Origin: Thermoanaerobaculia bacterium | GTDB taxonomy: Bacteria; Acidobacteriota; Thermoanaerobaculia; UBA5066 | DNA: 64,000 nt | Direction: 5' to 3' | Assembly: GCA_038245905.1 (NCBI GenBank) | Contig: JBBRRY010000019.1 | Location: 9,072-73,071, forward strand | In this document: one piece after another, positions 15,765-33,013 of the stretch | Layout of the letters: every line of letters begins with the position of its first letter | How positions within the stretch are numbered: the first letter of the stretch is position 1 | The notes under the pieces: generated by a model | Databases searched by the model: none | What the model was told of the DNA's origin: nothing | What the model saw: the letters and a program-made list of their open reading frames with translations, nothing else | Made by a program: the position numbers and the translations under genes

Positions 15765-15826
15765 CGCACTCGGCCTCCCCATCCGCGCCACCGCGCGAAT
15801 CGCGAACGCAGATTCCTTCCGTTGAA

Positions 15827-16291: not shown

Positions 16292-16306
16292 CGTTCTCTC
16301 CTTCTG

Positions 16307-16561
16307 TCAGGCGCCCGGGATCTTCAGGACCTGGCCCGGGTGAATCATGTCGGGGTTCTTGATCGTATCCTTGTTCGCCTCGAAGATTTCCTTCCAGCGC
16401 GAGGCGTCACCGAAGATCTTCTTGGCAATCTTGGAGAGGCTGTCACCGCCCACGACCGTGTACGCGCGCGTGATGACCTCGCCTGTCGGCGCCTCGGCCG
16501 AGCTGGAGCTGCCGCTCTTCACATCCGAGAAATCGGGCTCTGGTTCGTCGGGAAATGGCAT
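16307..16561 (-). CDS. Small LysM-domain protein
   Basis: YTVVGGDSLSKIAKKIFGDASRWKEIFEANKDTIKNPDMIHPGQVLKIP; SD AAGGAG before ATG 16561. Confidence 0.9.
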   Translation of the reverse strand: MPFPDEPEPDFSDVKSGSSSSAEAPTGEVITRAYTVVGGDSLSKIAKKIFGDASRWKEIFEANKDTIKNPDMIHPGQVLKIPGA

Positions 16562-16597
16562 GGGACTACTCCTTTCGTAGGGGGCAAGCATATCGAA

Positions 16598-18307
16598 TCA
16601 TTCCGCCATGCACAGCCCGACGCGGTGGCCCGCGCCGCGTCCGCTGACGCGCCAGCCGCCCTCGACGCGCTCGAAGGCGTCGGGGGGCGACGGCAAGCCG
16701 TCCCAGCCAAGCGTCGCCGCGATCCGGCGGTGGAGATCGTCGTAGAGAAAAGACTTCTTCTTCGACGAGGGGGAGAAGAAGGTCGCAACCGTTAACCTCA
16801 CGCCGCCCTTCTCGGTGGCTTCGAGGCCGACGACTCTTTCGCCGAACGCGGCGTCGATCGAGCTCGAGGGCCAACGCCGCGTCCAGCGGAACGAGGCGTC
16901 TTCTCCCGAGTGACGCGGGCAGACGTCCGGCGTTTCGCTGCCGCTTCCCCAGACGGCCTTCTCGGAGAGCGGCGCACCGCCGCAATGTCCCGTGAAGTGG
17001 GACGGTCCGGACAGCGTCGCCGCATCCGTCGCGCGCCGCCATCCGGCGTCGTCGAGGAACGCGGGCGGCGCGGCGATCGCGTTGCGCTTGTCCACCAGCG
17101 CGGTCCAGCGAGACGTCCACGTCACGTCCGGCCCCAGGCCCGCGAACCGCGCACAGTGCGTCAGGTCGCAGACGTCCTCGGCGCCGTGCCGCGCGCCGCG
17201 CGCGAGAAAGCGCAGGATGGCGGCGCCAAGCTCCTCCTTCCGGGCGCGCGGCGCGCTCGGCATCTCGCCGCGGATCACACCCTCTACGTAGTCGCGCCGC
17301 GTCGTCGTGAGGACGAGGGACACGCCGGGCGCTTCCGGATTCCCCCGCGCCCTCAGGCTTCCGCAGACGATGCGGACGAGGCCGAAGCGCGGGAGTCCGA
17401 GGAGCCATGTTCCGGATTGGAGGTGCTCTCCCGGTCCCAGGGCGACCTCGGAGCCCGGACCGATCCACGCGGCCCCGCCCGGCCCGTCGACGCGCACGGG
17501 CGCGCTCCCGATGTTATTCGCGGAGATCTCCGTCGCCCGGAGCGCGACGAAGAGGCGCACGGAAACGGGTCGTTCGGTGAGCTTCGGCTCTTTGGCCGAT
17601 CGTCCCCCGGCGTTCTCTTTCTGAAGCAGGGCGCCGAGCGCGGCCGCGGCCCGGGAACCCGTGCCGCGCGGGAGGAGGGCGAGGTGACCCGAGCGGCCCG
17701 CCGGATCGAAGAGCACGGCCCAGCCCGATGTGCCGAGCGGCGCGCCGTCGAGTGCGTGAACCGTTCCCGTTTTCGCGAAAAGGCCGCGCAGCGGCACACC
17801 GGCCGCCGTGCCGCCTTCCCCGGCGTCGCGCATCCCGTCCAGCCATTCGCGCCGGACGTCGTCGCGCACGGCCCACGCCGTCGTGAGGAGCTCGGCGTAG
17901 GCCTGGAGGAGGCGACGCGGCGCGATGACGATGTTCGGCCCGAGGCCGATCGCGGCATCCGGCGTGACGGGTCCTGAAACGTCGTAGCCGGCGGCGGTCA
18001 GCGTCTCGCGCAGCAGGGCTTCGGGCGTTTCCGCTGCGAGCCGCCGGAAATAAGCGTTGCACGACCGCGCCGTGGCGCCCCGGAGGTCCATGGCGCCGTG
18101 CCCCCCATCGAGCCAGCATCGCGAAGATCGGTCGCACGTCGAGCGCGGCGTCGGCGTGGCCGGGTCGGAATGCGCGAGCGCCCAGGCCTTCGTCACCCAC
18201 GCTTTCTGGAGCGAGCCGACGCTGTGGGGGGTGTCCGCGCCTTCCTCCGGCGAGACCTGCCCGTCGGCAAGGCGCCAGACGAGGAGTCCGGCCGCGAGGA
18301 GCTTCAT
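16598..18307 (-). CDS. PBP/beta-lactamase-like domain fused to a SpoIID/LytB domain (YfaQ-like)
   Basis: ATG 18307; SxxK (SLQK), SxN (SCN) and KTG motifs, then YVEGVIRGEM, CDLTHC, HCGG and GRGAGHRVGLC. Confidence 0.8.
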   Translation of the reverse strand: MKLLAAGLLVWRLADGQVSPEEGADTPHSVGSLQKAWVTKAWALAHSDPATPTPRSTCDRSSRCWLDGGHGAMDLRGATARSCNAYFRRLAAETPEALLRETLTAAGYDVSGPVTPDAAIGLGPNIVIAPRRLLQAYAELLTTAWAVRDDVRREWLDGMRDAGEGGTAAGVPLRGLFAKTGTVHALDGAPLGTSGWAVLFDPAGRSGHLALLPRGTGSRAAAALGALLQKENAGGRSAKEPKLTERPVSVRLFVALRATEISANNIGSAPVRVDGPGGAAWIGPGSEVALGPGEHLQSGTWLLGLPRFGLVRIVCGSLRARGNPEAPGVSLVLTTTRRDYVEGVIRGEMPSAPRARKEELGAAILRFLARGARHGAEDVCDLTHCARFAGLGPDVTWTSRWTALVDKRNAIAAPPAFLDDAGWRRATDAATLSGPSHFTGHCGGAPLSEKAVWGSGSETPDVCPRHSGEDASFRWTRRWPSSSIDAAFGERVVGLEATEKGGVRLTVATFFSPSSKKKSFLYDDLHRRIAATLGWDGLPSPPDAFERVEGGWRVSGRGAGHRVGLCMAE

Positions 18308-19833
18308 CGTGCCGGGGAAAGGACGACGCGTTCCGTCCAGCCGGCAGGCGAGGCGCAGCGCTCGACCGAAATCGTCGCGATTCCCGGAGCCCAGCCCAAG
18401 AGCCCGAGGACGCGGTCCGAGAACGGCCGCGCTCGCTCGGGCGAGAAGACGCCCTCGGCGCGCGCCCAGTCCTTGCCTTCGCGCGCCACGGCGGACAGAT
18501 CCAGCCAGCTCCACCTCACGAGCGAGCCATCGGCCGAAGGTTCCACGATTCCGGCAAGGTCCTCGCGCGAGGCCGCGATCCACAGCCAGGCACCGCGCCG
18601 CTCCCATGCGAACGCGGGCAGGTCCGGCCCCACGCGGAGCTCGCTCCGTTCCCTCCGGGCGACGCCTGCGCGGCGCGCGGCCATGGCGAGCGCGAGAGCC
18701 ACGAGACGCGCGTCCCCCTCGACTGGCCGCTTCACAACGAGGCGCCGCGCTCCGCTCTTCCCGATCTCCCATCCCCACCCGTCGACAGGACTTTCCTTCA
18801 GGTGGGCGGCCCACTCCGGCAGCTCGCCCGGCTCGCCCCCGGCCTTCTCGTCCGGCGCGGCGCGCGTCAGATCCACGAGGTAGGGATCGGCCGCCGTGGA
18901 ATTCGCGTCGGGCAGCGGCTTGAGAGACGCCACGGGCAGCGCCTTCGGCTCGGGCACGCTTTCGAGGAGGCCCCGGCGAAGAGCCCCGAAGAGGCGGGAG
19001 CCGTCCGTCTCCCAGCCCGCGGCGGCGAGGTCACGGCCGTCGATTTTCCAGGCCGGGGCGGCGGCGCGCGAGGCGTCGGTTCCCTCGCGCACCTCGACGA
19101 GGGCCTCTCCTTCGGCGCGTAGCGCCGCGAGAATCGTGCCGGTTTCGGATCCGGAGACCCCTTCCGCAAACAGAAACTCGCGGCGGAAGTAGAGGTCTTT
19201 TCGAAGCGCCGCGACGTCGAGCTTCAGGGAAACGAGCCCGGGCAGGAATCCCCTCACGCCCTCGCCCGCGAGCGAGCAATCGAGGGCGAGCTGAAGAGCC
19301 TTCTCGCTCGTCGCAATCAGAAGGACTCCGTTCGACTCCGCCCACGCGAGACCCATCCGCCGCGACGCGGCCCTGAGGTCTCCCGCGCCGCGGGCCACGA
19401 CGCGGTACGCCATGCCCCGGCGGTCTTTCGCCGTCCCGCCCGGCAGCTTCAGAACCGCGGCGGCCGACGCCGTCCGAACCGCCAGGACCGTCTCGAGATC
19501 GCCGACCGAGAGGAGCGTGACGCCAATCTCCGATGGCTGCAGCTTCATGAGCGAGCCCCAGTCGAGAGGGAGATCCTTCGTGAAGAGCGCCCATTGCGAT
19601 TCCAGCTTCCCGCCCACGCGGGTCTGCCGCCAGCCCGCCGCGACCGGATCGGACGCCGGGAGAGCGCCGGACAGCCCCTTGCGGAAGCCACCCGAAAGCG
19701 CATGGTCGAAGGCCGGGACGTCGGAGATCAGAAGGACGACCGGACCCTCCGGAAGCGGGAGCGCTGCCTTCGCCTGTCCTGCGGCCGGGCTCGCCGCGAG
19801 CAGCAGCGCGAAGAGAGCAAGGGCTTTTTTCAT
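18304..19833 (-). CDS. Exported hypothetical protein (509 aa)
   Basis: ATG 19833 (MKKALALFALLLAASPAAG, signal peptide); ATGA overlaps with both neighbours. Confidence 0.8.
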   Translation of the reverse strand: MKKALALFALLLAASPAAGQAKAALPLPEGPVVLLISDVPAFDHALSGGFRKGLSGALPASDPVAAGWRQTRVGGKLESQWALFTKDLPLDWGSLMKLQPSEIGVTLLSVGDLETVLAVRTASAAAVLKLPGGTAKDRRGMAYRVVARGAGDLRAASRRMGLAWAESNGVLLIATSEKALQLALDCSLAGEGVRGFLPGLVSLKLDVAALRKDLYFRREFLFAEGVSGSETGTILAALRAEGEALVEVREGTDASRAAAPAWKIDGRDLAAAGWETDGSRLFGALRRGLLESVPEPKALPVASLKPLPDANSTAADPYLVDLTRAAPDEKAGGEPGELPEWAAHLKESPVDGWGWEIGKSGARRLVVKRPVEGDARLVALALAMAARRAGVARRERSELRVGPDLPAFAWERRGAWLWIAASREDLAGIVEPSADGSLVRWSWLDLSAVAREGKDWARAEGVFSPERARPFSDRVLGLLGWAPGIATISVERCASPAGWTERVVLSPAR

Positions 19834-22800
19834 GGCACGTTCTCCGCGTTGAGCACGCGCGCATAGAGATCCCACGTCAGATCGCGCGGGCGAAGCTCGG
19901 CGAAGCGCCCCGCCGTCGTCCGGGTCACGTCCGGCCGCGGCAGATTCCGTCGCGAAAGGCTTTCGACTTCGCCTTTCAGGGCCGCGAGCGCGGGAGCTTT
20001 CCTCTCCGCGAGAGCGGCGAGGGCCTGAGCGGCGGCCGCCTTGTCGCCGGATTCCGCGGCCACGCGCGCGACGTCGGCGAGGAGGCCGTCGACCTCGGCC
20101 TTCGGGAAGCGGCGGCGCGCGAGCTCATTGGCGTCCACGAAGAGCGACGGGACGGCCGCCCGTGCCGACCGGAAGGAGCGGGTCCGCTCGAACCGGAGCA
20201 CGCGCCAGCCGGGGACGTCTTCACGGCCTCCGAGAGCGGCCCAGGCCGGAGCCGCGACGGCTTCACGCGCAGGCGCGAGGCTCCGAAGGACGACGCGCGC
20301 CGAGAGAAAGTCGTACGGGTGCCGCGCGAGATGCGTGGCGAGTGTGTCGCCCCAGAAGTCGATGTCCGGCCCCTTCTTTGTCCAGAACGCGGCGGCGATC
20401 TCCCACGCGGCGGGAGCGCCGCTCGCCCGGCCTGCCGGGACGCCGGGGATCCGCCGCCACGCGTCGAATGCGTCTCGCTCTTCGGTGCGCGTTAGGGAGA
20501 GCCGCGCACGCACATGAACCCATTCGGTCCGCGCCTCGTCGGGAAGCTTGCGCAGGAGGAGGATGTCCGCGCGGACTCTCGCCTCCGCGAACGATCGGGG
20601 CTCCTCGATGCGTTGGAACCAGCGCCCCGCGGCGGCCGGATCCCGCGCGACGAGAGCCTTGGCAATCGCCGCGCGGTCGCCCGAAGGAGCGGGCCATTCT
20701 CCGCGTGCCCAGCTCTTCTCGAGATCCGCGATCGTCGCGTTCTGCGCTTCGGGGGTTGTCGCGAGCTCGAGCGAGAGCAGCCACGCCGCGAGTGGAGCGG
20801 GTCCGGCTTCGAGCTCCTTCTTCACGCGCGCGCGGAGCTTCTCTTCCGCCAGAGTGAGGGCGGCCCCGCGCGTCGAGTCGCGGAAGACCTTCAGCCACGT
20901 CACCAGGCTCGGAGCGCCCGAGGCCGTCGGTGCCGGCAGAGCATGTGCGTCCGGCACACCGGCTCCTTCTTCGCCCTCCTCGGCGGCCGGGGGCGGCGCG
21001 GCGGGAACGGCGGCGGCCGACCAGAAAAGCGGTGAAGCCCCCGGCGCCGTCGAGGTCAGCCTGTGGTCGAGGCGATTGAGCGCAGCCGCTTCGTCGCCCG
21101 AGGCGAGCTCGGCCTTGAGGAGAAGGAGCTCCATCGGCTCGCGCCGATCGAGCGTCTTCGCAGCGAAGTTGCGGAGCGGGTTCGGATCGGGCAGGGCGCG
21201 CACCGAGGCGAGAGCGTCGGCGCGGAGGCGCACGTCGACCGGCGCGAGAACGTCGCCCGCCGCCGCCCAGAAGGGCCCGAGCTTCCGCGCGGCGCGGTCG
21301 GGATAGCGAGCTGACCCCACGGACCAGAGGTCGTCGAGGTACCGGATCGTCCTGTCTCGAGAGAGGGTCTCGCCTTCCTTCTCCCAGCGAGCGGCGAGCG
21401 CGACGCGAAACGCGGCGGAGTCGGCCGGCGTGAAGCGCGCGGCGGCTTTGGGGCCCTCGACGTCCCAGAGCCACGCGAGGAGCCCCGGAGAGACCGACTT
21501 TTTCGCATCGAGCTGCTCGAGAGGCGCCGTCAGCCCGAAGTGCTTCGCCACGCTCTGCCAGGCCGTCCAGGTCTCCGGGTCGGCGCGATTCTGGCGCGAG
21601 CGGATCTCCGTGCCGAGAAGGTCGTCGGCCGCGCGGCGACCCGCCGCCGGATCATCTTTCACGAGAAGGCGCAGCCGCCTTAGCAGTCGGTCCCGCTTGC
21701 CGAGATCGGCGAAATACGTCTCGTCGAGCCGAAGCGCGAGCGGCACGTCACCGAGCCCTTCGGCGGTCCTCACGGCAAGCAGGGTCTTGTCCGTCTCGCC
21801 GCCGCGAGACGGCGACTCCAGCGGCACCCACGGCGCATCGACCGCGCGCTCCCGCCAGCGCGAAAGGGCCTCCAGGACGTACCACGCGTCGCCGGGACGC
21901 GCGCCCCAGAGTCGGCCCGGCAGGCGCATCGCATCGGCGCCGCCGCCCGTGAACGAGTCTTCGCCGGTCTCTCCCGAGGGACGCGGAGAAAACTCGGGCC
22001 ACGTCCACTTCGGGTCGGGAGTCAGGACGTCCCCGAGGCTTCTCGGCCCCCGCAGCCGCACGATGTCCGCCGAGGACGCGGCGTCCTTCTTCCCTTCGAC
22101 GAGGGCCGCGAGAGACGACGAGGCACGGGACACCGCCGTGCGCCTCTGAGCTTCCAGCGGGTTCAGGCGGGCGGCCGCCGCCGTCCCGCGCGCGGAAAGG
22201 AGAGCCAGCCATGCCCCCCTCGTGTCGTCGTCGAGGATGTTCACGAGCGGGCGGAGGTCCCAGGCGCCGCCGGTCGCCGCCTCGAAGCGCGCGTAGGCTT
22301 CTTCCGTCCGGAACCAAGAGGCGGCGTGCGCCTTCCAGCCCGCGTGTTCGGGCGTCTCGGCGAGGCGTGCGAAGGCTTCCACCGGGAACCAGCGCGCGAA
22401 CGGGAGAGGCAGCGCGTGGAGCGGTCCTGTCGAAACACGCGCTTGAAGCTCCGCAACCCGAGCCTCGAGGATCGGCACGAGAAGAGCGAGGCGATCGCGC
22501 GAGACGAGATAGGACGTCCACTCGGGGAGGAAGTCCGAGTTCGAGAAGGCAATCGTGTGGCCTTTGCTGGCCCCGGAGGCCGGTGGAACATCCTTGATGG
22601 GGCGAATACTCCGTAAGAAGGCAACAGGGGGATTGGCGCTCCAGGGGGCGCCCGCGTCGTGCCGGGATGCCAGCAGCCGTCGAGCGACTTCCTCAGAGAA
22701 TCTGTGGAGCCCGGCGCGGCCGGCGAAGTCCCACCAGCGGTTGAGGGCGGCAACGTTCATGACTGGTTCGCTTCGCCCATCCGGCTTGCCGCCGCCTTCT

Positions 22801-25800
22801 TCTCTCTTACCCTCTAAGAACATCTGTATTACTAATTGTTTCTGCAATTCGTCGAGCTGCTCGGGCTTCGCGATCCGCGCGATGACCTCCGCCGCCTCGT
22901 TCCGGAAGGACTTGTCGCCTCCGAACGCCCGAACGAGCGTCGTCAGCTTGTCGGCACGGAGAGCGATCTCCGTCCTTTCGCCGTGCGAGAGCTGCACTTC
23001 GGAGACGCGCCTGAAGTTCCCGCCGGGGACGGCGACGGCCCACGCCTCTGCCGGACGGCCGAGAGCGAGGAAGCGGCGGGCGATGCGGGCGCGCCGTTCG
23101 GCTGCCTGGACCGCGGGCACCGCGCGGCCCTGCTCTTTCGCGTCGGCGAGCCAGGCCGCGAGCGACGCTCGCTCGACCTCGAGAGCCCGGCCCTCGTCGC
23201 CGGCCTTCACATAGAGAGAGGCGCGCCACGAAGCCACGTTTTCGTCGCCCGCACGCGCCTTCGCCCAGGCCCCGAGAAAATCCGCCGCTTCCCGAAAGCG
23301 GTCCGCCCGCTCGAGAAGCGCGACCGTCTCCCGGTGCTGGCTCTCCCTTTCGGGCGCCACGAGCACCGCTTCCTTCGAGACGGCGATCGCGCCGTCGAGG
23401 TCGCCCGCAAACGTGCGGATCTCGCGAACGGCCACCGCCCAGCGCACGTCGCGCGGGCTGTGCGCGCGCTGCGTTTCGAAGAACCCGAGCAGGTGCTTCT
23501 CGCGACCTGAGGCGACGGCCAGCCGGCAAACCTCGCCAAGGAAGCCCCGATCCAGCCGCAGGTTCAACGCTTCGATGAAGAGGTCCACGGCCTCGGCGTT
23601 CCTGCCTTCTTCGCTCGCGGCTCGCGCGAAAGCAGCCCAGAGATCCGCCTTCTTGTTCTCGGGAAGAGCAGCCGCCGCTTTCCTGCCGCTCGCGACGAGG
23701 TCGACAGGAGCGCCGCTCCGGAGAGAGAGGCGGGCGTCGAGAGAAGCGGCGGCGATGCGCTTGTCGTCGTCGAGGGCGAGCGCGGCCATCGCTCGGAGGG
23801 CCCGCTGCGCCCGCGCAAGGTCGCCCCGGTCGAGCGATTCCTTCGCGAGGCGCTCGGTCAGGCGCTCCCGGTGCCCCGCCGCCGCTGCGCCGGCGGTCTT
23901 CTCGAGAAGATCGAGGCCTTCGGACGCGCGGCCCGAGCGGAAGAGAAACGCGAGCCGGTCCTCGAAGACGCCGAGCGACCAGGGATAACGCTTGCCCAGC
24001 GCCGCCCACAGCCCGTTCGCGTCCCCCTTCGTGTCTTCGGCGAAACCCGCGGCCCCGGCGAGATGGTGCATCTTCGTCGCGGCCTCCGGCAGGGCCTCGA
24101 TGCGCGGTCCGAGCGATTTCCAGAGGGCCGCGGCCTGATCCGCGCGCCCGTGTCCCGAGAGGAAGTGCGCCCGTGCGATCTCGGCCTCGATGCGCTTCTC
24201 CTCGGTCGGCGCGAGCGCGGCCTCGCGGGCGAGAAGTGCGTCGTCGAAGTCCGCGTCGCGTGCCGGATCGGGAGCGAACCGTCGGTCCAGGATCTGGCCC
24301 CGCCGTTGCCGAAGCGCGCCGAGAAATCCGGAGCGCGTCGCGGCGGAGATCATCGCGTGCGTCTTCGCGACGAGCGCGGTGCCAACGCGGAGGAGTCCGC
24401 CCCCTTCCGCGGTCTGAGCGCCTTCTCGCGCGTCGGCGCGACGCTCCCGCCCCACGGCGTCGTTCGGCCGGTCCATCCAGTCGTCCCATGCGTCGGCTTC
24501 CTCTGGCGCGAGCGTGAGAAGTGAGAGCAACGAGACGAGCGTTTCCTCGTCCCCCGCCTCGCCGGGCCGGAGAGCCGCGATGCGCCTCCCGACCAGCTCC
24601 TGGACGCGCGGCCGGCCCATGAGCCGCGCGAGGCGCTGCGACGCCCGCGGGTCGCCCCAGGACCAGCGTCCTCTGCCGCCGCCGTCCTCTCCGCGAAGAG
24701 CGGAGAGGTATTCGTCGACGGCCCCCGGGAGGTCGCGCACCTCTTCGCGCAGGATGCCTGCCTCGAACGCGTGCATGCCCGGGCGGCCGAGCCGCGCGCG
24801 GCCTGACTCGAGCGTCTCGAGCGCCTCCGCCATGCGGCCGTAGTCCCAGAAGATTGTCGCGACTTCCAGAATGCGCGCCGGGTCGCGCGGCGACGCCGCC
24901 ATGACGTTTCGCCAGGCCTCACCCGCGGGGCCCGGGCGATCGAGGTCCTGCCAGGTCTCGCCTGCCGAGGTGTAGACGGCTGCCGGGTCTTCGAGGGCGG
25001 GCGCGACCGCGCGCGCGATGCGCTCCACGGCCGACGCGTGCGCGGCGTCGAGACCGGAGAGCGAGCGGTGCAGGGACATGGCCTGCTGCGCGATCGGTCC
25101 GTTGCCCGGATACGCCTCGGCGAGACGATCGGCGAAGGGTGTGGCGCGCTCGAACTGCGACAGGCGCGCCCAGCCATCCAGAAGTAGGACGTTTTCCACC
25201 GGTGTTCTCACGGGGAGCGCCTCGAGCTCGACGAGAAACGCTTCGAGCCGTCCCCGCTTCACGAAATCGTCGAGGAGGCGTTGCCGCCGCGCGGAGTCCT
25301 CGAAGAGCAGGGCGTCCTGGCGGGGCTTGAGGAACGCGTCGGGAACGACCCCTCGCTCCTTCCAGTCCACCGGGCGGCTCCACCGCGGGTTGTCGAAGAC
25401 CGATCGAAGAATCAGGTGGGACTCCGCCTGCCGCAGGACCTCGGGGCTGGCCGGGAAGCGGTCCAGGGCCTTGAGGCGAAGGTAGTCGCCGAAGCGGACG
25501 TAAGGATTCGGCTGTGCCTCGGCCGGGACCGTCTCGAGGATGTTTGGATCCCGGCTGAAGATGTCGGCGGCCCGGAAGCGCGCCACGACGTCGTCGGCGA
25601 GAGTCTTCAGCTCCGTTGTCTTCTGCCGCCTCGCGTACCAGCGGGCGAGGCGGTTCCACCACTCCGGCCCGCCGAAGCTCTCCAGCGCCGCGCGATAGCG
25701 GGCATCGAGGCCGTCGTCCAGCTTCCAGCCGCCGATCTGGTCCGCCGACCATCGCCAGAGGCTTTCCGCGCCCGGAAGCCGGTCGAGCTCGCCGAGAAGG

Positions 25801-27524
25801 AGCGTCAGGGAAAGGCGGTGCGAGCGGTCGAGACCAGAAAGCCGCGTGATGGCTTCCCGGAGCGCGGGACCATAGACGTCCCGCGCAGCCGGGCGGCCCT
25901 CCCCCTCGCGCGCTTGCGCGGGAGCTTCCAGAGTCGGCATCGAGCCTGCCGGTGCGAGGAGCTTCAGGCGCTCGCTCCAGAGCGCGGCCTCGCGCTCCGG
26001 CTGCGGCTTCGTCTGCCTGAGGGCGAGAAGGACGACGCGCCGGGCCTCGGCCCGCGTGGCTTCGTCGCCCGCGTCGGCTTTCGGCAAGAGCTTCAGGGCG
26101 CTGTCTCCCTCGCCGCGCTCTACGTGTCGCGCCATGATCGCGACGGTGAGCCCCGGCAGCTTCGGATGTTTCGGGGCGCGCTTTTCCAGCTCGGCCGCGA
26201 GGAGCCGGGCGGCGGCAAACGTGCGGTCGGGCAGCCGGCGCGCCTCCAGCTCGGCGAGCGCGCGTTCCTTCTCGAATCCGGTGAGAAGCAGCGAGAGACC
26301 TCCCGTCAAGAAGCCGGGAGTCACGTCGATGCGAGCGGCCCACCGGTAGGACTCGTCGTTGTACACGCCCCACGCGAGCGGCCGCCCTCCCGCCTTGAGG
26401 GCGAGCTCTGCCAGGGTCTCGAGGTCGTCGAGCTTTTCGGCGGGAGTTCCCGTCGAAGCGGCGGCGAGCCGCGCGCGAAACGCCTCGGGCACTCCGTCGA
26501 CGGATTCCCAGAGACGGGCGGTGAGGAGCCACGCGCCACGGTCGAACGAGGCCGCGTGGCGCCGCTCGATCTGTGTCAGGAGCTCGAACGCGAGGTCGCC
26601 GCGGCTCTTCCCTTCGAAGTAGCGGGCAAGAAGGAGAAACGCCTTCGGGTCGAACGAGCGTTCCAGCGCGAATCGCCAGCCGTCCAGCTTCGCGCGGGCC
26701 GCTTCATCCGCGCGGCGCGCGAAAACCTGGAGCGTCTGCGGATCGGGCCGCCTCGACGCATCCCCTACGAAGGCTTCGAGCACCGCATACGCGCCGACCG
26801 GGTCTCCGTGGGTGCCCTTCAGGTCGGAGGCAAGTACCGCCCGGCGCTCGTCCGGCAGAGCCGCCGCCATCCTGAGCGCGTCCTCGGCTTCGTGCAGCCG
26901 GCCGGCGGCCTCGAGGGAGCGGATCCAGTCCTCCGTAAACGCCGGGTCCCGGGGAAAGAGCGCGGCCCGGTCCGCTTTCATCGAGAGGGGCTCGGCGACG
27001 TCCGGATGTGCCTCGGCCCACCCGATCCGTTCGGTGGCGAGGGCGCGCTTCTCGCCGTCGGAAAGGCCCGGAAGCGCTTTCGCGGCACAGGCGAATGCAA
27101 AGGTCCACGACCGGTAACGCGCGCCCCAGCGGGCGGCCTCGGCCCACGCCGCGGGCGCGGCCCCGCCGCTCCGGGACGCCCACTCGGAGAGCGCCTTCTC
27201 GGCGCCCGCGCGATCTCCCAGCTCGCGGCGCGCTTCGGCCAGGTGCCGGAAAGCGACGAGCGCGTTCGTCCCGTCCGCCGCGGCGACTCCCGAAGTCGCC
27301 GCTTCGAGCGAGGCGGCCAGCTCCCGAGTCGGCGCGGGGTAATGCACCGTCCGCCCGTCCACGACCGCGCGGCGCGTTGCGATCGACATCAGAAACTCGC
27401 CGTCAGAAAGCTCGGTCCACGGGATGACGGAGGAAGACGGAGAGGGAGACGACGAAGAAGAGAACCCTTGCTCAGAAAGTGAAAACAGGACGATGACCGC
27501 CAGCGCGCCTTTTCTCTCTCTCAT
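19830..27524 (-). CDS. Giant exported helical-repeat (TPR-like) protein, ~2564 aa
   Basis: ATG 27524 overlaps the upstream stop; N-terminal hydrophobic segment; Ala/Leu/Arg-rich TPR-like repeats (e.g. VATIFWDYGRMAEALETL, FEAGILREE). Confidence 0.8.
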   Translation of the reverse strand: MRERKGALAVIVLFSLSEQGFSSSSSPSPSSSVIPWTELSDGEFLMSIATRRAVVDGRTVHYPAPTRELAASLEAATSGVAAADGTNALVAFRHLAEARRELGDRAGAEKALSEWASRSGGAAPAAWAEAARWGARYRSWTFAFACAAKALPGLSDGEKRALATERIGWAEAHPDVAEPLSMKADRAALFPRDPAFTEDWIRSLEAAGRLHEAEDALRMAAALPDERRAVLASDLKGTHGDPVGAYAVLEAFVGDASRRPDPQTLQVFARRADEAARAKLDGWRFALERSFDPKAFLLLARYFEGKSRGDLAFELLTQIERRHAASFDRGAWLLTARLWESVDGVPEAFRARLAAASTGTPAEKLDDLETLAELALKAGGRPLAWGVYNDESYRWAARIDVTPGFLTGGLSLLLTGFEKERALAELEARRLPDRTFAAARLLAAELEKRAPKHPKLPGLTVAIMARHVERGEGDSALKLLPKADAGDEATRAEARRVVLLALRQTKPQPEREAALWSERLKLLAPAGSMPTLEAPAQAREGEGRPAARDVYGPALREAITRLSGLDRSHRLSLTLLLGELDRLPGAESLWRWSADQIGGWKLDDGLDARYRAALESFGGPEWWNRLARWYARRQKTTELKTLADDVVARFRAADIFSRDPNILETVPAEAQPNPYVRFGDYLRLKALDRFPASPEVLRQAESHLILRSVFDNPRWSRPVDWKERGVVPDAFLKPRQDALLFEDSARRQRLLDDFVKRGRLEAFLVELEALPVRTPVENVLLLDGWARLSQFERATPFADRLAEAYPGNGPIAQQAMSLHRSLSGLDAAHASAVERIARAVAPALEDPAAVYTSAGETWQDLDRPGPAGEAWRNVMAASPRDPARILEVATIFWDYGRMAEALETLESGRARLGRPGMHAFEAGILREEVRDLPGAVDEYLSALRGEDGGGRGRWSWGDPRASQRLARLMGRPRVQELVGRRIAALRPGEAGDEETLVSLLSLLTLAPEEADAWDDWMDRPNDAVGRERRADAREGAQTAEGGGLLRVGTALVAKTHAMISAATRSGFLGALRQRRGQILDRRFAPDPARDADFDDALLAREAALAPTEEKRIEAEIARAHFLSGHGRADQAAALWKSLGPRIEALPEAATKMHHLAGAAGFAEDTKGDANGLWAALGKRYPWSLGVFEDRLAFLFRSGRASEGLDLLEKTAGAAAAGHRERLTERLAKESLDRGDLARAQRALRAMAALALDDDKRIAAASLDARLSLRSGAPVDLVASGRKAAAALPENKKADLWAAFARAASEEGRNAEAVDLFIEALNLRLDRGFLGEVCRLAVASGREKHLLGFFETQRAHSPRDVRWAVAVREIRTFAGDLDGAIAVSKEAVLVAPERESQHRETVALLERADRFREAADFLGAWAKARAGDENVASWRASLYVKAGDEGRALEVERASLAAWLADAKEQGRAVPAVQAAERRARIARRFLALGRPAEAWAVAVPGGNFRRVSEVQLSHGERTEIALRADKLTTLVRAFGGDKSFRNEAAEVIARIAKPEQLDELQKQLVIQMFLEGKREEGGGKPDGRSEPVMNVAALNRWWDFAGRAGLHRFSEEVARRLLASRHDAGAPWSANPPVAFLRSIRPIKDVPPASGASKGHTIAFSNSDFLPEWTSYLVSRDRLALLVPILEARVAELQARVSTGPLHALPLPFARWFPVEAFARLAETPEHAGWKAHAASWFRTEEAYARFEAATGGAWDLRPLVNILDDDTRGAWLALLSARGTAAAARLNPLEAQRRTAVSRASSSLAALVEGKKDAASSADIVRLRGPRSLGDVLTPDPKWTWPEFSPRPSGETGEDSFTGGGADAMRLPGRLWGARPGDAWYVLEALSRWRERAVDAPWVPLESPSRGGETDKTLLAVRTAEGLGDVPLALRLDETYFADLGKRDRLLRRLRLLVKDDPAAGRRAADDLLGTEIRSRQNRADPETWTAWQSVAKHFGLTAPLEQLDAKKSVSPGLLAWLWDVEGPKAAARFTPADSAAFRVALAARWEKEGETLSRDRTIRYLDDLWSVGSARYPDRAARKLGPFWAAAGDVLAPVDVRLRADALASVRALPDPNPLRNFAAKTLDRREPMELLLLKAELASGDEAAALNRLDHRLTSTAPGASPLFWSAAAVPAAPPPAAEEGEEGAGVPDAHALPAPTASGAPSLVTWLKVFRDSTRGAALTLAEEKLRARVKKELEAGPAPLAAWLLSLELATTPEAQNATIADLEKSWARGEWPAPSGDRAAIAKALVARDPAAAGRWFQRIEEPRSFAEARVRADILLLRKLPDEARTEWVHVRARLSLTRTEERDAFDAWRRIPGVPAGRASGAPAAWEIAAAFWTKKGPDIDFWGDTLATHLARHPYDFLSARVVLRSLAPAREAVAAPAWAALGGREDVPGWRVLRFERTRSFRSARAAVPSLFVDANELARRRFPKAEVDGLLADVARVAAESGDKAAAAQALAALAERKAPALAALKGEVESLSRRNLPRPDVTRTTAGRFAELRPRDLTWDLYARVLNAENVP

Positions 27525-29962
27525 CTGACTTCCACCGTCGTTCTTGCGAAACCATGGTTCCCTGCGCCGTCCGTGGCCTCGAAGAAGATCTGCCTCGCTC
27601 CCGCGGCACCGGGCGGGACGAAAAGCTCGCCCACCGAGCGCTTCGACGACCGATCCCAACGAAGGGGAACGGGCGGGCCTTCGCCGAGGCGCGCGGCCAG
27701 GAAGACGACGTCCGAATCGGCGCGCACCGAGACACGGAGCGTCCGCCCCGGAGCTGCCGGACCGGGGGGATCGGGAAGGATGACGGGTGGCGTTCCGTCG
27801 ACAACGAGGTACTTCGTCTCGACGAGCGTGCGGCCCGACACGTCGTGGAGAACGATACGGAGAGGCAGCCTTCCGTCGGGCAGACCCTCCGGGACGAGAA
27901 AGCGCCCTTCCCATACGCGGCTGTTCGGGCGGCGCACGAGGTCGACCCGCTTCCCGAAGGGCAGCAGCGCGGAAGCGGAAACGATGCCCGGGTCCGCTTC
28001 GATGCGGATGACCGGATCTCCCGGCTGGATGCGCCGCGGGCGAAGCAGCGACCGTGGCGCGGCAAGGAACGCCGTGTAGGGCGTTACGAACTTGTACCGG
28101 CGCGAGAGGGCGAGGATCTCGTCCACCCACTCGCGCTTCTCACCCTCGAGCTCGATCAGCCTGAGCAGCTCGTCGACGCGCGCGCGCGCCCACCGGCGGG
28201 GAAGGTCGCGCGCCTCGAGCGCCGTCTCGGGGAATGGCGTCGTCACGGAGAGGGGCTCGCCGGAAGCGTCCCTGAGCATGAGAGTGGCCGACGCGAGAGG
28301 AACGGCATACCGTCCAATCCAGCCCGAGAGCGACCCCCGCGCCGGCGGCTGCGTCAACACGGCGTAGACGTCGCGCAGCTTCGGGTCGCCGCCCGAAACC
28401 GTGAACGGAACGTCGCCGCGTTCTCTCCTCGACATGGAGGGTGTCGGCTTCGGCGCGGGTGCGGCCGTCTCGAAGAGACGCCGGTAGAAGAGCGTCGCTT
28501 CGGCCGTCTCGCCCGAGGATGCAGTCGCCGTCGCGAGCGGGAGGAGCGCCGCGGAGGCAACGGCGTAGCTCTCGCGTGTCTCTTCTCCGGTCAGGATCGT
28601 GAAGAGCGGAATGCCCCCGCGCGCGGCGACGAGATCGCCGCTCGGCCCGACGCCGTCCGTGAGGAGGACGATCCGCCCGGACCCTCCCACCGCTTTCGCC
28701 CCGGCCTTTACCGCCGCGGCCACGTCGGTCCCCGGCGCGAGCAGCCGGGCACGGAGGGCGACGAGCGCCGCCTGCCTCGCCGCGGGCGAGGCCGCGACCA
28801 CCCCGGCGGTGTCCGGCGCGGGAGAGCGATCGAAGGGGATGAGAACGAAGCGATCCTTCTCGCTGAGGGAGTCGAGGATCTTCACGAGGGCGCCATAAGC
28901 CGCCTCGAGGCCGCCCCAGCGATGCGAGAGCGAGGTGTCGAACAGGAGGGCGAGCGTGAGTGGCGCTCGGTGGCTCGACTCCGCAGGCCCACTCGCGGCC
29001 GCCGGGCTCGTCGCGCCGGCACCCGGCCGATATTGCAGGAGAAAGAATCCGTCCTTTTCCGGCGGAATCTCCGACGGACGCTCCCAGGGCGCGAGTGCGA
29101 GCCCGTCCGGGAGCGCTCCGGACGGATTCCGGAAGGCGGACACCGTGAGCGGCGCGGAGGACGCCGGGCGGAAGCGCAGGACGACGTCCTTCTCCAGCTT
29201 CACGTTCGTACCGGAAAAGACCGCCTCGTTGCCCGTCCGCGAAAGCTCGAGGCCGCCGCCGACCGGCGGCTCGAGTGTTCCGTCGAGGAGCGTCACGCGC
29301 ACACGCAGGCTCCCAGCGACGGGCGGCTCGCCGTCCCTCGGCCTGAACGCGATGCGAAACTCGCCGACTCCGTCCAGCCAGGGCACCTCCTGCTGGTACT
29401 CGAGCTCGAGGCGCTTCGTGCCGAGCGCGGGAATCGGCGCCACCTTGACCGAGAAGACCGCGCCTCCCGAGGATCGGTCCGCCGCGCGACCGGAGGAGCC
29501 CTTGTCGCGGTCTTCTTCCTCTCCCTGTTGGAGAAGGCCGGGATCGATGCGCTGCGTCGTGAGGTCGCGATAGATCGCGCGCGCCCGCCGCTTTTCGAGA
29601 ATAACGCCGGGAATGCGCGTGAGGCCGTCCCACACCGCGAAGTCCCCGACCGCGCCCGAGGCCGGAAGTGCGAAGCGCCACGTGCCTTCCTGAACGGCCC
29701 CGGTGTGGTTTTCGAAGACCTGCCGCACGTTCACGCGCGCATATCCGCGGACGATTCCCGCATCGATCTCCATGGAACGCAGCGAGAGCACGCGGAGATC
29801 CGGGTGGCCGGTGGACGTCGGAACGAGAAGACCGGTCTGCGAAAGACCCGGAAAAGAGACAGAGATGGTTACAAACAAGAGAACGAACGTGATCGGGAGA
29901 TTTGCAATCTTCCGCTTCCGCCTTGACGGGCTGGCACCGAAGGGTATCTCCAGCAAAGTCAT
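27521..29962 (-). CDS. VIT + vWA domain protein (ITIH-like), exported
   Basis: VIT signature (YARVNVRQVFENHTGAVQEGTWRFALP), MIDAS DTSLS, LLTDG, LSRRYKFVTPYTAFL. Confidence 0.88.
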   Translation of the reverse strand: MTLLEIPFGASPSRRKRKIANLPITFVLLFVTISVSFPGLSQTGLLVPTSTGHPDLRVLSLRSMEIDAGIVRGYARVNVRQVFENHTGAVQEGTWRFALPASGAVGDFAVWDGLTRIPGVILEKRRARAIYRDLTTQRIDPGLLQQGEEEDRDKGSSGRAADRSSGGAVFSVKVAPIPALGTKRLELEYQQEVPWLDGVGEFRIAFRPRDGEPPVAGSLRVRVTLLDGTLEPPVGGGLELSRTGNEAVFSGTNVKLEKDVVLRFRPASSAPLTVSAFRNPSGALPDGLALAPWERPSEIPPEKDGFFLLQYRPGAGATSPAAASGPAESSHRAPLTLALLFDTSLSHRWGGLEAAYGALVKILDSLSEKDRFVLIPFDRSPAPDTAGVVAASPAARQAALVALRARLLAPGTDVAAAVKAGAKAVGGSGRIVLLTDGVGPSGDLVAARGGIPLFTILTGEETRESYAVASAALLPLATATASSGETAEATLFYRRLFETAAPAPKPTPSMSRRERGDVPFTVSGGDPKLRDVYAVLTQPPARGSLSGWIGRYAVPLASATLMLRDASGEPLSVTTPFPETALEARDLPRRWARARVDELLRLIELEGEKREWVDEILALSRRYKFVTPYTAFLAAPRSLLRPRRIQPGDPVIRIEADPGIVSASALLPFGKRVDLVRRPNSRVWEGRFLVPEGLPDGRLPLRIVLHDVSGRTLVETKYLVVDGTPPVILPDPPGPAAPGRTLRVSVRADSDVVFLAARLGEGPPVPLRWDRSSKRSVGELFVPPGAAGARQIFFEATDGAGNHGFARTTVEVR

Positions 29963-31857
29963 TCTCTTTCTCTGTCGTTCTGAAGAGCAATCCTCGCGAG
30001 GCCTTCGTCCGTCCCGACGTAGAGATGCGTCGGCGCGTCCGCCGGCAGAAACGCCAGGCTGAACACGTCCGGCGAGGGAAGCGGGAGATTCAGCTTCTCG
30101 AAGCGCGCGACGCCCGGGTCCGAGCGCCAGAGGCCCTGGCCCTCAGTCCCGATCCAGACGCGCCCGGAGGGATCCGCGAGCATGGCGCCCGCGTTGATCT
30201 TCAGCCCGTCGGTCTCCACGAAACGCTCCCAGCTTTCGCCGCTCCCTTCGCCCCGGCGCCTGACCACGCCGCCGCCGTACGTGGCGACGAGGAGCGAGTC
30301 GCCCGTGTCGCGAAGCGCGGTGATCCACGGGTGCGGGAGCTTTCCCTCCCCCGCCACCACGCGCGCGACGTGGCGGCCGTCGATCCAGCCGAGTCCCGAC
30401 GGAGTCCCCACCCAGAGCCGGCCGTTCGTCGAGGACGCCAGCGCGAACGCCTGGTTGCCCGGCAGGCCGTGGAAAGCCGAGAGCAGCCGCTTCTCGGGAA
30501 GAAGGACTCCCTGGCCATAGCCCACCGCGACGCCCGAGCGCGTGGCGGCGAGCGAGAAAGCGGCTCCGGGATTGCTCTCTTCCCGGGTGGCCACCGGCCG
30601 TCCGTTCTCCAGCCGGACGAGACCCCGCAGCGTCGCAGCCCAGACCGTTCCCCCGGAGGCCAGGAGAGCGTTCACGCCCCATCCGGAGCTGGCGGGAACC
30701 GCGTTCCAGATAAGCCCGTCTTTCATCGCGACGCCTCTTGCGAGACCTCCGTCGAAGAACCCGGCCCAGAGCGTCGTTCCCTCCGCGGCGAGCGCATTGA
30801 CGTGGGGGCGGGGAAGCGAGCCGGGCGCCGCTTCGCGCACGAGGACGAATCCCCGCTCGCGATCGCGCCGCCAGAGCCCGCTCTTTCCGGCCGCGAAAAG
30901 CTCTCCGCGGTCCGCGAAGAGACGCGTGAACGACTCGGGCGTTCCCTCTTCGGTCCGTGACCCGTCCGGCCCGAGCGAGGCCATGCGATTCGTCTCGCGC
31001 TCGGGAAGCATCCGCCAGAGGCCGGCCGTGAGAGCTCCGTGTCCGGCGTCGCCGCCCCGGGGATGAACTGCGAGCGACGGCGTCTCTCCGTGTGGCGAGC
31101 CGTAAGCAATGCCGAGAGGCGTCGCGGCCCAGAGAACGCTCGCGCCCGCGTCGAACGCGAGTTCCTCGATCCAGGGATCGGGTGTGACCACGCGCCGCAC
31201 AGCGCCGCCCGAGGCGGAGACGATGCGGAGCCCCGTCTCGCCGCCCGCAGCGATCTCGCCAGACGGAAGAAGAGCAATCGCCCGGACACTTTCGCCGTCG
31301 ACGCGCTCGATCTCGCTCGAGCCGAACGCAACCCGAAAGAGTCCCTGCCGTGCGCCGACCAGGAGCTCACCACCCTCGGTCTCGACGAGGGCGCGCACGT
31401 CGAGGCGCCCCCAGGACGACGTCGCCTCCTCCGGTCCGCCCTGCGTGAGCCGTCCCCATCCTCCGCGCTCGGCGGCGAAGACCAGCGTCTCCCGCCAGCT
31501 CGCGACCGCCCGCTGGCGGAGGGTGGAGAGCCCCGCGATCGGGTCGAGGCGGCGCGTGCCGTCGGAGAGACCCGCGCCTCCCGCTTCCCAGAGCGCCCCG
31601 CCCACGACGGCGAGAGACGCGATGCTGGCGTCTCCCGTCAACGCGACGGCCGCGGAGGAAGGAGAGACGACCGCCCGAAACAAGAGAGGACGAATGGTCT
31701 CGGCGCGGAGGCGCTCGGGGGAAGCAGCCTCGCGAGTCTTCGCGGCGACGTGCCGGAGCCACAGCGCGCCTGCCGACGCGAGTGCCAGGCAGACGAGACC
31801 CGTCCCGAGGAGCGCGGCTCTTCGAAGACCCTTGAGGGACACGGCGCGGATCTTAAT
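29959..31857 (-). CDS. Membrane-anchored beta-propeller protein (ligand-binding sensor-type propeller repeats)
   Basis: Repeated LWVGT/VWIGTEGQGL/LPxxxVxAL blades; N-terminal TM; start is ATT 31857 (SD GGAGGAGG) or GTG 31842. Confidence 0.8.
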   Translation of the reverse strand: MKIRAVSLKGLRRAALLGTGLVCLALASAGALWLRHVAAKTREAASPERLRAETIRPLLFRAVVSPSSAAVALTGDASIASLAVVGGALWEAGGAGLSDGTRRLDPIAGLSTLRQRAVASWRETLVFAAERGGWGRLTQGGPEEATSSWGRLDVRALVETEGGELLVGARQGLFRVAFGSSEIERVDGESVRAIALLPSGEIAAGGETGLRIVSASGGAVRRVVTPDPWIEELAFDAGASVLWAATPLGIAYGSPHGETPSLAVHPRGGDAGHGALTAGLWRMLPERETNRMASLGPDGSRTEEGTPESFTRLFADRGELFAAGKSGLWRRDRERGFVLVREAAPGSLPRPHVNALAAEGTTLWAGFFDGGLARGVAMKDGLIWNAVPASSGWGVNALLASGGTVWAATLRGLVRLENGRPVATREESNPGAAFSLAATRSGVAVGYGQGVLLPEKRLLSAFHGLPGNQAFALASSTNGRLWVGTPSGLGWIDGRHVARVVAGEGKLPHPWITALRDTGDSLLVATYGGGVVRRRGEGSGESWERFVETDGLKINAGAMLADPSGRVWIGTEGQGLWRSDPGVARFEKLNLPLPSPDVFSLAFLPADAPTHLYVGTDEGLARIALQNDRERE

Positions 31858-32038
31858 GGCTGCCTCCTCCGTTTCGTGAGAAACGCACGGGTCGTGCCGG
31901 CCCACTGGACAGCGCCCGTACTTCTTACGCCGATCCACGTGTTTTCCGTTTCGAAGAAGGTGCACCCCTTTGGAGATTACGGGCCTCGCCGTGTCGTTCT
32001 CGGCGCGCCGCCCCCTGCTAACCTTCCGGCAGACCGTC

Positions 32039-33013
32039 ATGAAGCTCGTCATTCAGATCCCCGCCTGGGACGAGGCGGAACAGATCGGACCCGCACTCGC
32101 GGAGCTGCCTCGCCGCGTGCCCGGGTTCGAGTCGGTCGAGACGCTCGTCGTGGACGACGGCTCGACCGACGACACCGCGGAGGCCGCGCGCCGGGCGGGA
32201 GCGGGCCACGTCGTCCGGCTTCCCATCCACCGTGGACTCGCGTTCGCCTGGCGGGCCGGGCTCGACGCCGCGTTGCGTCTCGGGGCCGACGTCATCGTCT
32301 CGACCGATGCCGACCGCCAGTACGCGGCGGCCGACATCGAGGTGCTCGTCGCGCCGATCCTGAAGGGCAAGGCCGAGATCGTCGTCGGCGACCGCGGCGT
32401 CGCGACGAAGGACGACTTCTCCCCCGGCAAGCGCCTCACACAGCGTCTGGGGTCATGGGTCGTGCGGCGCGTCTCCGGCACCGACGTGCCCGACGCGACG
32501 TCCGGCTTCCGCGCCCTCACGCGCGAAGCCGCGATGCAGCTCAACGTCTTTTCGAAGATGACGTATACGATCGAGACGCTCATCCAGGCCGGCAACAAGG
32601 AGATGGCGGTCGCCTCGGTCCCCGTACGGACGAACCCGCCCGTCAGGCCGTCGCGCCTCATCCGGCGCACGTCGAACTACGTCCTCGTCCAGGGCGCGAA
32701 CATCCTGCGGATCACCGCGCTCTACAAGCCGTTGCCCGTGTTCTTCGGCGCCGCGGCCCTCCTCGCGTTCGCCGGCCTCGCGCTCGTCGCGCGGTACGTC
32801 TGGTTCGTCGCGATGGCTCAGAACCCCGCGGGCCACCTCCAGTCGCTCCTCCTCGCCGCCGTCCTCTTTGTCGCGGCGGTCGTCTGCTTCCTCTCCGGCC
32901 TCCTCGCGGACCTCATCTCGATCAACCGCGCTCTCCTCGAGGAGCTCGTCGTCGAGAAGAGGAGAGATGCTGCTTCGGAGAAAGACAGAGACCCGGGGAT
33001 TCGGATTTCTTAG
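32039..33013 (+). CDS. GT2 glycosyltransferase (polyprenol-phosphate sugar synthase-like) with C-terminal TMs
   Basis: IPAWDE, VVDDGSTD, TDADRQY and DATSGFRA motifs. Confidence 0.9.
   Translation: MKLVIQIPAWDEAEQIGPALAELPRRVPGFESVETLVVDDGSTDDTAEAARRAGAGHVVRLPIHRGLAFAWRAGLDAALRLGADVIVSTDADRQYAAADIEVLVAPILKGKAEIVVGDRGVATKDDFSPGKRLTQRLGSWVVRRVSGTDVPDATSGFRALTREAAMQLNVFSKMTYTIETLIQAGNKEMAVASVPVRTNPPVRPSRLIRRTSNYVLVQGANILRITALYKPLPVFFGAAALLAFAGLALVARYVWFVAMAQNPAGHLQSLLLAAVLFVAAVVCFLSGLLADLISINRALLEELVVEKRRDAASEKDRDPGIRIS

Follow-up and report, generated by a model that had tools for sequence, protein, structure and literature searches.

A five-gene operon of Acidobacteriota encoding putatively exported proteins and a predicted two-domain peptidoglycan enzyme

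Results

Organization of the operon

We examined a block of five genes within a 64,000-nt stretch of a Thermoanaerobaculia bacterium genome (Acidobacteriota; GenBank assembly GCA_038245905.1, contig JBBRRY010000019.1, positions 9,072 to 73,071 of the forward strand), which is referred to as the window and whose positions are used throughout. The block consists of five open reading frames (ORFs) arranged head to tail on the minus strand at 16598-31857, in a window of approximately 70% G+C, and we refer to them as g1 to g5. The block belongs to no described kind of system known to us. As argued below, its products may form a periplasmic complex that acts on the glycan strand of peptidoglycan. 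The features of the block are as follows.

g1: 29959..31857, minus strand, double beta-propeller of the Reg_prop type with an N-terminal anchor or signal and without an output domain (632 amino acids, aa)
g2: 27521..29962, minus strand, signal peptide followed by VIT, vWA and a conserved C-terminal region (813 aa)
g3: 19830..27524, minus strand, exported alpha-helical giant with stretches resembling tetratricopeptide repeats (TPR; 2,564 aa)
g4: 18304..19833, minus strand, secreted protein of an orphan family with a predicted DUF3352-like fold (509 aa)
g5: 16598..18307, minus strand, penicillin-binding protein (PBP) transpeptidase-fold domain fused to a SpoIID-type lytic transglycosylase domain (569 aa)
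Leader: 31858..32011, minus strand, 154 bp of non-coding DNA belonging to the inserted segment, presumed promoter and 5' untranslated region, with the Shine-Dalgarno sequence GGAGGAGG at 31863-31870
Extra segment: 16595..32011, no strand assigned, 15,417 bp holding the operon and its leader and nothing else, absent in five same-genus genomes

The initial annotation had described a five-gene minus-strand operon with four ATGA overlaps, and this was confirmed at every junction: the stop codon of each gene overlaps the start of the next by 4 nt at 29962/59, 27524/21, 19833/30 and 18307/04. Its further reading as a translationally coupled operon of exported proteins is supported, with the gene order being kept in dozens of genomes. 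A hydrophobic N-terminal segment was noted in all five products, as judged by eye and not with a signal-peptide predictor. The first gene may start at ATT 31857, 5 nt past the strong ribosome-binding sequence at 31863-31870, or at an alternative GTG at 31842, five codons on; its orthologues start with ATG, 5-8 residues ahead of a shared RR and hydrophobic stretch. The promoter scan returned no promoters (n = 0) and no sigma-70 consensus, and the terminator scan returned 7 terminator-like sites compared to 9.2 expected. In addition, a public contig of 16,747 nt from a separate assembly, which may share its source sample, covers 15500-32165 with zero differences and even depth. Among sequencing runs, one DNA data set was listed, possibly that of the source sample, and no RNA data set.

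Domain content of the five proteins

From the examination of the domain content, g5 is the only recognizable enzyme of the block, and both of its predicted active sites are intact. A transpeptidase fold is predicted at approximately residues 1-240 (SLQK, SCN and KTGT) and a SpoIID-type domain at approximately residues 320-569 (Glu348), with these domain calls resting on family profiles and not on the Pfam matches of the window protein itself. Against the PDB, the family profile matched the PBP2/MrdA transpeptidase (4e-12), with the three motifs aligned, and the SpoIID structure 4rwr (4e-9). The C-terminal half alone also matched 4rwr (1.8e-4), placing E348 opposite the Glu of GVVASEM, which we take to be the catalytic residue of SpoIID. 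The SxxK, SxN and KTG motifs (S32, K35, S82, N84 and K179-T-G-T182) were invariant in all 41 aligned g5 sequences, as were E348, H374, C380, D381, H384 and C385. These profile matches and invariant motifs bear out the proposal of a PBP/SpoIID enzyme as the last gene, at the level of sequence comparison. Among the 41 family members, Pfam recognized Transpeptidase in 18 and SpoIID in 6. Both domains are above their cut-offs and in the same order in a homologue from Archangium sp. (Myxococcota; P0208, also P0207), which shares 25-29% identity with g5.

The PBP part of g5 is a bare fold of approximately 215 residues that starts near residue 25. Neither a PBP_dimer (pedestal) match nor a glycosyltransferase-type transglycosylase domain was found by Pfam in the window protein or the 41 members, and an assignment of g5 to the class B high-molecular-weight PBPs (PBP2/PBP3) was rejected for want of the pedestal domain. 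Most g5 orthologues carry a classical signal peptide of 20-30 residues. In the clade of the window, approximately nine hydrophobic residues (MKLLAAGLLVW...) stand straight before the mature fold (18280-18307), and no better in-frame upstream start was found for the window protein.

The most conserved of the five proteins is g2, with 57-67% identity to its orthologues. VIT was detected well above its Pfam cut-off (58.4 versus 26.5 bits), and VWA_3 scored 25.2 bits, 1.8 bits under its cut-off of 27. In the PDB, the nearest solved relatives of the g2 profile are the inter-alpha-trypsin inhibitor (ITI) heavy chains ITIH4 (1.5e-11) and ITIH1 (6.9e-6, in the vWA region), with the match extending over VIT and vWA only. 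The order of VIT followed by vWA is thus found in g2, where the vWA assignment rests on the ITIH1 profile match, and the ITI-heavy-chain-like architecture suggested by the initial annotation is borne out by the VIT score and the two structural matches.

The same annotation had called g2 a metal-ion-dependent adhesion site (MIDAS) adhesin. The site is complete in the window protein (D342, S344, S346, T412 and D436; D-S-S-T-D), but the adhesin claim is weakened across the family, where 34 of 71 orthologues, the window protein included, have the canonical set of five residues and 37 have a degenerate site. Most Holophagaceae have the site replaced, for example by D-S-S-A-S or D-S-G-A-G. Downstream of the metal site, all 71 orthologues, even those at 33% identity, share an I(Q/R)PGDP motif.

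The propeller proposed for g1 was recovered with a Reg_prop score above the Pfam cut-off (42.1 versus 20.4 bits). Its family profile matched sensor-propeller structures, namely 4a2l (7.8e-21) as well as 3v9f and 3va6, which are periplasmic sensor domains of Bacteroides hybrid two-component systems. A further match was to PorZ (5m11; 1.7e-7), presumably the glycan-presenting partner of a sortase-like enzyme. These structural relatives among the sensor propellers bind oligosaccharides. In the Pfam scan, g1 was without Y_Y_Y, histidine kinase, receiver and type IX secretion C-terminal domains.

The giant protein g3 is rich in Ala (18%), Leu (12%) and Arg (11%), and we detected 231 homologues, nearly all of approximately 2,450-2,680 aa, with the shorter rows resembling partial records. 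Conservation is spread over the entire length, with residues 300-500, 1300-1400 and 1800-1900 among the conserved segments. There is no Cys in the signal region, so that g3 is not a lipoprotein. As for the earlier description of a giant TPR protein, the size is confirmed and the TPR assignment is plausible but weakly shown: the window protein had no Pfam matches (n = 0), TPR_19 was found in 3 of 18 homologues, and other TPR models were found in one each. The best PDB match was a designed TPR protein (5.5e-4), and TPR_14 was above cut-off in the Granulicella counterpart of g3.

The fourth protein, g4, carries a textbook signal peptide and had been labelled as unknown. This label holds, as no family was assigned by Pfam or PDB profile searches, with the family profile included. 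The g4 profile gave 66 matches among 1.84 billion representative proteins. Remote relatives of approximately 580 aa provided no informative Pfam match, with one of 12 showing a sub-threshold Snurportin hit. The predicted fold may resemble DUF3352: an ESM Atlas model of the g4 homologue P0024 aligned to a DUF3352 cluster with a template modelling (TM) score of 0.60 over 406 residues, the model itself being modest (predicted TM score 0.64, predicted local distance difference test 0.59), and language-model feature scores linking the homologue to DUF3352 were 0.95-0.96. The DUF3352 hidden Markov model (HMM; PF11832) did not match g4, and no publication on DUF3352 was found. As a separate observation, one protein of the representative library (P0240, 1,646 aa) matched the g4 profile at residues 1326-1418 only, and it could represent a fusion or a g3-g4 read-through.

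Distribution and gene order across Acidobacteriota

We assessed the distribution of the block with g4 as a probe. No match was found among 40 close relatives, comprising 24 genomes of the same genus and 16 of the same order. In an even sample of 400 genomes of the phylum, there were eight matches, all from one other family (f42), the named relatives of which are Holophagaceae and Geothrix. When 400 genomes were sampled evenly from the class, 15 matches were obtained, all in seven other genera of the window's own family (15 of 37 genomes). In this class sample, the same genus was negative (0 of 18, overlapping the 24 above), as was another genus (0 of 3). All six complete loci of the f42 family contained the five genes in order at 40-59% identity, and a seventh, truncated locus contained g3-g5.

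A scan with the g2 alignment, covering one genome per species, returned 80 loci, all from Acidobacteriota. Among their labels were Holophagales, Holophagaceae, Geothrix, Holophaga, Thermoanaerobaculia, Vicinamibacteria and, for some, Solibacteraceae, and four divergent loci at 33-34% identity belong to Granulicella (n = 3) and Bryobacteraceae (n = 1). The labels of the representative genomes with the block span at least three classes, and a divergent Terriglobia form comes in addition. Among the 76 close loci, g1 was upstream in 64 of the 65 with room for it, g3 followed g2 in 45 of 45, g4 was present in 42 of 42, and g5 was present in 35 of 40; the five g5 misses had just 0.7-1.0 kb of sequence past g4. 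An overlapping in-frame start (4 nt or 1 nt) was on offer at g2/g3 in 65 of 66 loci, g3/g4 in 42 of 43, g4/g5 in 25 of 36, and g1/g2 in 32 of 76, these counts recording that a start is available and being no proof of its use. The neighborhood survey places the block as syntenic elsewhere, with its order kept across dozens of acidobacterial genomes.

The surroundings of the block were found to differ from locus to locus. No upstream family was common to more than 8 of 47 loci, and the flank genes of the window were absent within approximately 15-35 kb of the block in four f42 genomes and within approximately 10 kb of it in three from the same family as the window. Order and overlaps are kept between distant lineages while the neighbors change, and the five genes are a unit under joint selection. 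The block has so far been found in Acidobacteriota only, and it appears to be a self-contained operon that is inherited, lost or gained as one unit.

The divergent Granulicella form encodes a giant of 2,673 aa, a 586-aa protein without a family, and a SpoIID-only protein of 386 aa in the last position, with overlapping genes. The last protein scored 54.8 bits for Pfam SpoIID and aligned to the C-terminal half of g5 (hhalign 99.1%), and the 586-aa protein was not significant by hhalign against g4 (3%) or against g5. The predicted SpoIID domain is the enzymatic part common to both forms, and the PBP fold is a predicted addition. Since the SpoIID gene stands last and without a PBP part in the one divergent Granulicella locus that was read fully, glycan-strand cleavage is likely the constant activity. 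Granulicella paludicola DSM 22464 has the same series, with a g2-like protein, a giant and a protein of approximately 600 aa. Homologues of the block proteins are carried by the cultured Mesoterricola silvestris and a Geothrix strain, with Granulicella paludicola having the divergent form.

Site of the extra segment and flanking genes

Two flanking genes delimit the block in the window.

LysM gene: 16307-16561, minus strand, 84 aa, starting 36 bp past the g5 stop
GT2 glycosyltransferase gene: 31970-33013, plus strand, as called by the ORF finder (TTG 31970); congener alignment puts the start at ATG 32039

In all five well-assembled genomes of the same genus, these two genes have orthologues that stand next to each other in divergent orientation, with GT2 at 83-89% identity and approximately 60 bp between the two gene starts. 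In these five congeners without the block, the two blocks of homology lie 44-64 bp apart. From the aligned junctions, the extra segment (16595-32011) extends from 3 nt past the stop codon of g5 to 154 bp upstream of g1, with backbone homology resuming at 32012. No direct repeats were present within either boundary region, the two regions not having been compared with each other. We saw neither an integrase nor a tRNA gene in the five genes and their 154-bp leader, and a search of a plasmid collection with g4 and g5 was negative.

The simpler reading is a gain by this genome, with the block probably being an acquired accessory element, because no other sampled member of the genus has it, other genera of the family carry it elsewhere, and its G+C content at third codon positions (GC3) is lower. 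The block genes have a GC3 of 0.78-0.81, and most flank genes are at 0.84-0.92. This difference is weak evidence of a foreign origin, since the DUF885 gene of the flank is also at 0.78. In a tree of 71 g2 sequences (FastTree, support values not inspected), the window grouped with two loci from metagenome-assembled genomes beside a clade of its own family, a placement with which vertical descent and one clean loss in the other members of the genus would also be compatible.

Two observations concern the genes downstream of the block. Most of the former upstream region of the LysM gene has been displaced by the 15.4-kb segment, and this gene may now be read through from the operon. Further on, a long ORF at 15075-16232 (minus strand) contains an M15 D-Ala-D-Ala dipeptidase domain at residues 200-361, and its matches in congeners are split in two or interrupted by internal stops. 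Another ORF of high GC3, which resembles a lipoprotein gene (15827-16291), overlaps the 5' part, and the N-terminal third of the long M15 ORF is probably not real, as judged from these comparisons.

The neighboring alpha-2-macroglobulin gene

The initial annotation had drawn attention to an alpha-2-macroglobulin (A2M) gene on the same strand and 4.1 kb upstream of the block, and had suggested that the two possibly act together.

A2M gene: 35962-42060, minus strand, 2,032 aa, with MG2, A2M and bMG10 domains and CTEQ at residue 1495; thioester type

The position was as described, but three plus-strand genes (GT2, LPG_synthase_TM and DUF885) separate the A2M gene from the block. The A2M gene has a RapA-like helicase gene upstream and the convergent DUF885 gene downstream, and no PBP1c gene stands beside it. 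In all five congeners without the block, the A2M gene is located 6-11 kb from the same GT2 gene. Among five carrier genomes, A2M/bMG10 domains were found in only one, at 1.28 Mb from the block. The nearness of the A2M gene to the block is a coincidence, and neither the proposed partnership nor the expected co-occurrence with A2M and, in this genome, with DUF2138 is upheld.

The protein comparisons were also examined for relationships with bacterial A2M operons. PBP1c is reported to be the partner of thioester A2Ms, the A2Ms found with the multi-gene mag/yfa operon are those lacking the thioester, and the Mag proteins of P. aeruginosa form complexes (PMC5764988). MG and A2M domains are absent from all five block proteins by Pfam. 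Across this genome, the DUF2300 and DUF2138 HMMs matched nothing, g5 included for DUF2300. Comparisons of g4 and g2 with YfaA, YfaT and YfaP gave hhalign probabilities of at most 2.6%. The g5 family showed a remote similarity to E. coli YfaQ (hhalign 92%, E 6.6e-7, 318 columns) that included the SxxK-like and SpoIID-like motifs, and the SpoIID half alone reached 12%. An assignment of the block to the bacterial A2M operons, either type I (yfhM-pbpC) or type II (yfa/mag), was rejected, with no A2M gene inside the block and no match to the partners YfaA (DUF2138), YfaT (DUF1175), YfaP (DUF2135) or a PBP1c with a glycosyltransferase domain.

Relation to described envelope systems

We compared the block with several described systems that share some of its components. 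Type II A2M operons (E. coli yfaA-T-S-Q-P and P. aeruginosa magABCDEF) are likewise multi-gene operons of exported periplasmic proteins with one very large member, and g5 shows a remote profile similarity to YfaQ. They differ from the block in that it lacks an A2M gene, in that g4 and g2 are unlike YfaA, YfaT or YfaP, and in that its large protein is a predicted helical solenoid rather than a macroglobulin. The Bat and MoxR-vWA clusters also combine vWA and TPR proteins in one envelope-associated operon; in contrast, the five block proteins are without a MoxR ATPase, DUF58 or a BatA-type membrane vWA by Pfam, and their vWA is of the VIT-linked VWA_3 type. Among the five proteins there was no MoxR AAA+ ATPase or DUF58, and no flanking family is conserved either.

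At the level of individual proteins, g2 resembles the ITI heavy chains ITIH1 and ITIH4 in its VIT and vWA order and, in the window, in a canonical metal site. It differs in being bacterial and periplasmic, in having an unaligned C-terminal third, in the degenerate metal site of 37 of the 71 orthologues, and in having no known bikunin-like or hyaluronan partner. The double-propeller signature of g1 is shared with the Bacteroides hybrid two-component sensors and PorZ; unlike the former, g1 is a propeller without Y_Y_Y, kinase or receiver, and unlike the latter it lacks the C-terminal domain of type IX secretion. In g5, the C-terminal half resembles SpoIID of the SpoIID-SpoIIM-SpoIIP engulfment machinery through its match to 4rwr and the conserved motif Glu. 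In contrast to that machinery, the five genes had no Pfam match to a SpoIIP-type amidase or SpoIIM, the SpoIID domain is fused to a PBP fold, and the host is a non-sporulating diderm.

Searches for the system as a whole were negative. The PADLOC component models of known anti-phage defense systems gave no matches (n = 0) for all five proteins, and NCBIfam provided only far sub-threshold matches. No publication describing this gene combination was found in a search that covered subscription journals thinly. The view of an uncharacterized envelope system is retained, with no match to it in Pfam, NCBIfam, PADLOC or the literature searched.

Discussion

We tentatively propose that the block encodes a periplasmic, solenoid-scaffolded peptidoglycan-remodeling complex of five exported proteins that would act on the glycan strand, which is our best reading, held with less than even confidence. 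In this proposal, the solenoid of g3, with its approximately 2,550 residues at near-constant length, would be the scaffold. Ligand binding, probably of glycan, and anchoring near the inner membrane would fall to g1, the double propeller close to the membrane, and to the ITI-heavy-chain-like g2, and g4 with its DUF3352-like fold would be an adaptor. The g5 enzyme would locally cut glycan strands and trim or re-crosslink stem peptides. The biological purpose may be local wall remodeling, repair, or the making of room for a structure. NlpI and LpoA are TPR scaffolds and regulators of peptidoglycan enzymes, and they resemble the block in the proposed logic, in which wall hydrolases and PBPs would be held or activated by a protein of helical repeats. 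In comparison, g3 differs in being approximately ten times longer, in not being a lipoprotein, in having three further partners, and in showing no detectable sequence relationship to either.

Several points weigh against the proposed remodeling complex. Co-transcription is no proof of a complex. The TPR signal of g3 is weak as judged from the profile searches. The window g5 misses both Pfam cut-offs, with Transpeptidase at 19.3 compared to 22.1 bits and SpoIID without a match, and its export is less certain here because the hydrophobic stretch comprises only about nine residues. SpoIID needs denuded glycan strands as its substrate, and no amidase was recognized in the block by Pfam. From the aligned orthologues, metal-dependent binding by g2 would be no constant feature of the block, and since the metal site is canonical in only 34 of the 71 it cannot be essential to a common mechanism.

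A different reading, which we consider unlikely, is that the block builds a large envelope-spanning or surface structure with an adhesive or matrix-binding role, for which g5 would be a dedicated space-maker in the sacculus. The vWA, VIT and propeller domains are typical binding modules, a wall-cutting enzyme occupies the last position of the operon, and the trait is accessory and patchy, with 15 carriers among 37 other genomes of the family and no carrier in two overlapping same-genus samples (0 of 24 and 0 of 18). Specialized lytic transglycosylases open the sacculus for flagella, pili and secretion systems. However, by Pfam and NCBIfam the operon encodes no outer-membrane barrel, secretin, ATPase or sorting signal, no conserved neighbor genes are available to supply export, and the added PBP domain suits wall remodeling better than plain hole-making.

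It is improbable that the five proteins are merely co-expressed and act separately, with their order reflecting operon inertia. Each protein does have its own export signal, but loci from different classes, at 33-60% identity, retain all five members with their order and overlaps, the flanks turn over, and the block is present or absent as a whole.

A more specific chemistry can be suggested by analogy to the ITI heavy chains, which are transferred onto hyaluronan. Under this rival explanation, g2 would be cleaved at the Asp-Pro of its conserved motif and esterified or cross-linked to a wall polymer, with g1 presenting the glycan and g5 contributing acyl-transfer and strand-cutting chemistry. 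The motif, present in all 71 orthologues including those at 33% identity, is consistent with such covalent coupling, as are the position of ITIH4 and ITIH1 as the closest solved relatives of g2, the resemblance of g1 to PorZ, and the acyl-enzyme transferase fold of g5. However, the equation of the g2 Asp-Pro with the ITI cleavage site is by position only, the PDB alignment spans VIT and vWA only, and a conserved PGDP is also found at ordinary domain starts, so that we regard this explanation as highly doubtful. We give a small chance to a joint form of these ideas, in which a solenoid-held ITI-like g2, a glycan-binding propeller, the DUF3352-fold g4 and a SpoIID enzyme with or without the PBP fold would tether protein to the glycan strand or couple it covalently, using the g2 Asp-Pro; if true, this would be a bacterial counterpart of heavy-chain transfer onto hyaluronan.

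The earlier reading of a periplasmic defense or repair machine that works with the thioester A2M against proteases, predators or phage breach is extremely improbable and its A2M partnership largely refuted, since the remote YfaQ similarity of g5, the resemblance of g2 to the heavy chains of a protease-inhibitor complex and the A2M gene 4.1 kb away are outweighed by the intervening opposite-strand genes, the A2M gene kept by GT2 in all five block-less congeners, its presence in one of five carriers at a distance of 1.28 Mb, the unrelatedness of g4 and g2 to YfaA, YfaT and YfaP, the missing DUF2138 and DUF2300, the low score of the SpoIID half against YfaQ, the empty PADLOC search, and the pairing of thioester A2Ms with PBP1c and not with a YfaQ-type operon, as reported in PMC5764988.

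Acidobacteriota are among the most abundant bacteria of soils and sediments, and their envelope biology is almost unstudied. With its 15 kb and five exported proteins, the block is among the largest conserved gene units found here without an assigned role. It combines an enzyme in which two peptidoglycan activities are fused, a rare arrangement, with a bacterial relative of the human ITI heavy chains and a helical giant of near-constant length. The window provides a natural presence/absence pair within one genus with boundaries placed at the level of single bases, and the existence of cultured carriers makes the block testable. Its function could reveal a new way of organizing cell-wall enzymes and could provide the first functions for DUF3352-like and bacterial VIT-vWA proteins.

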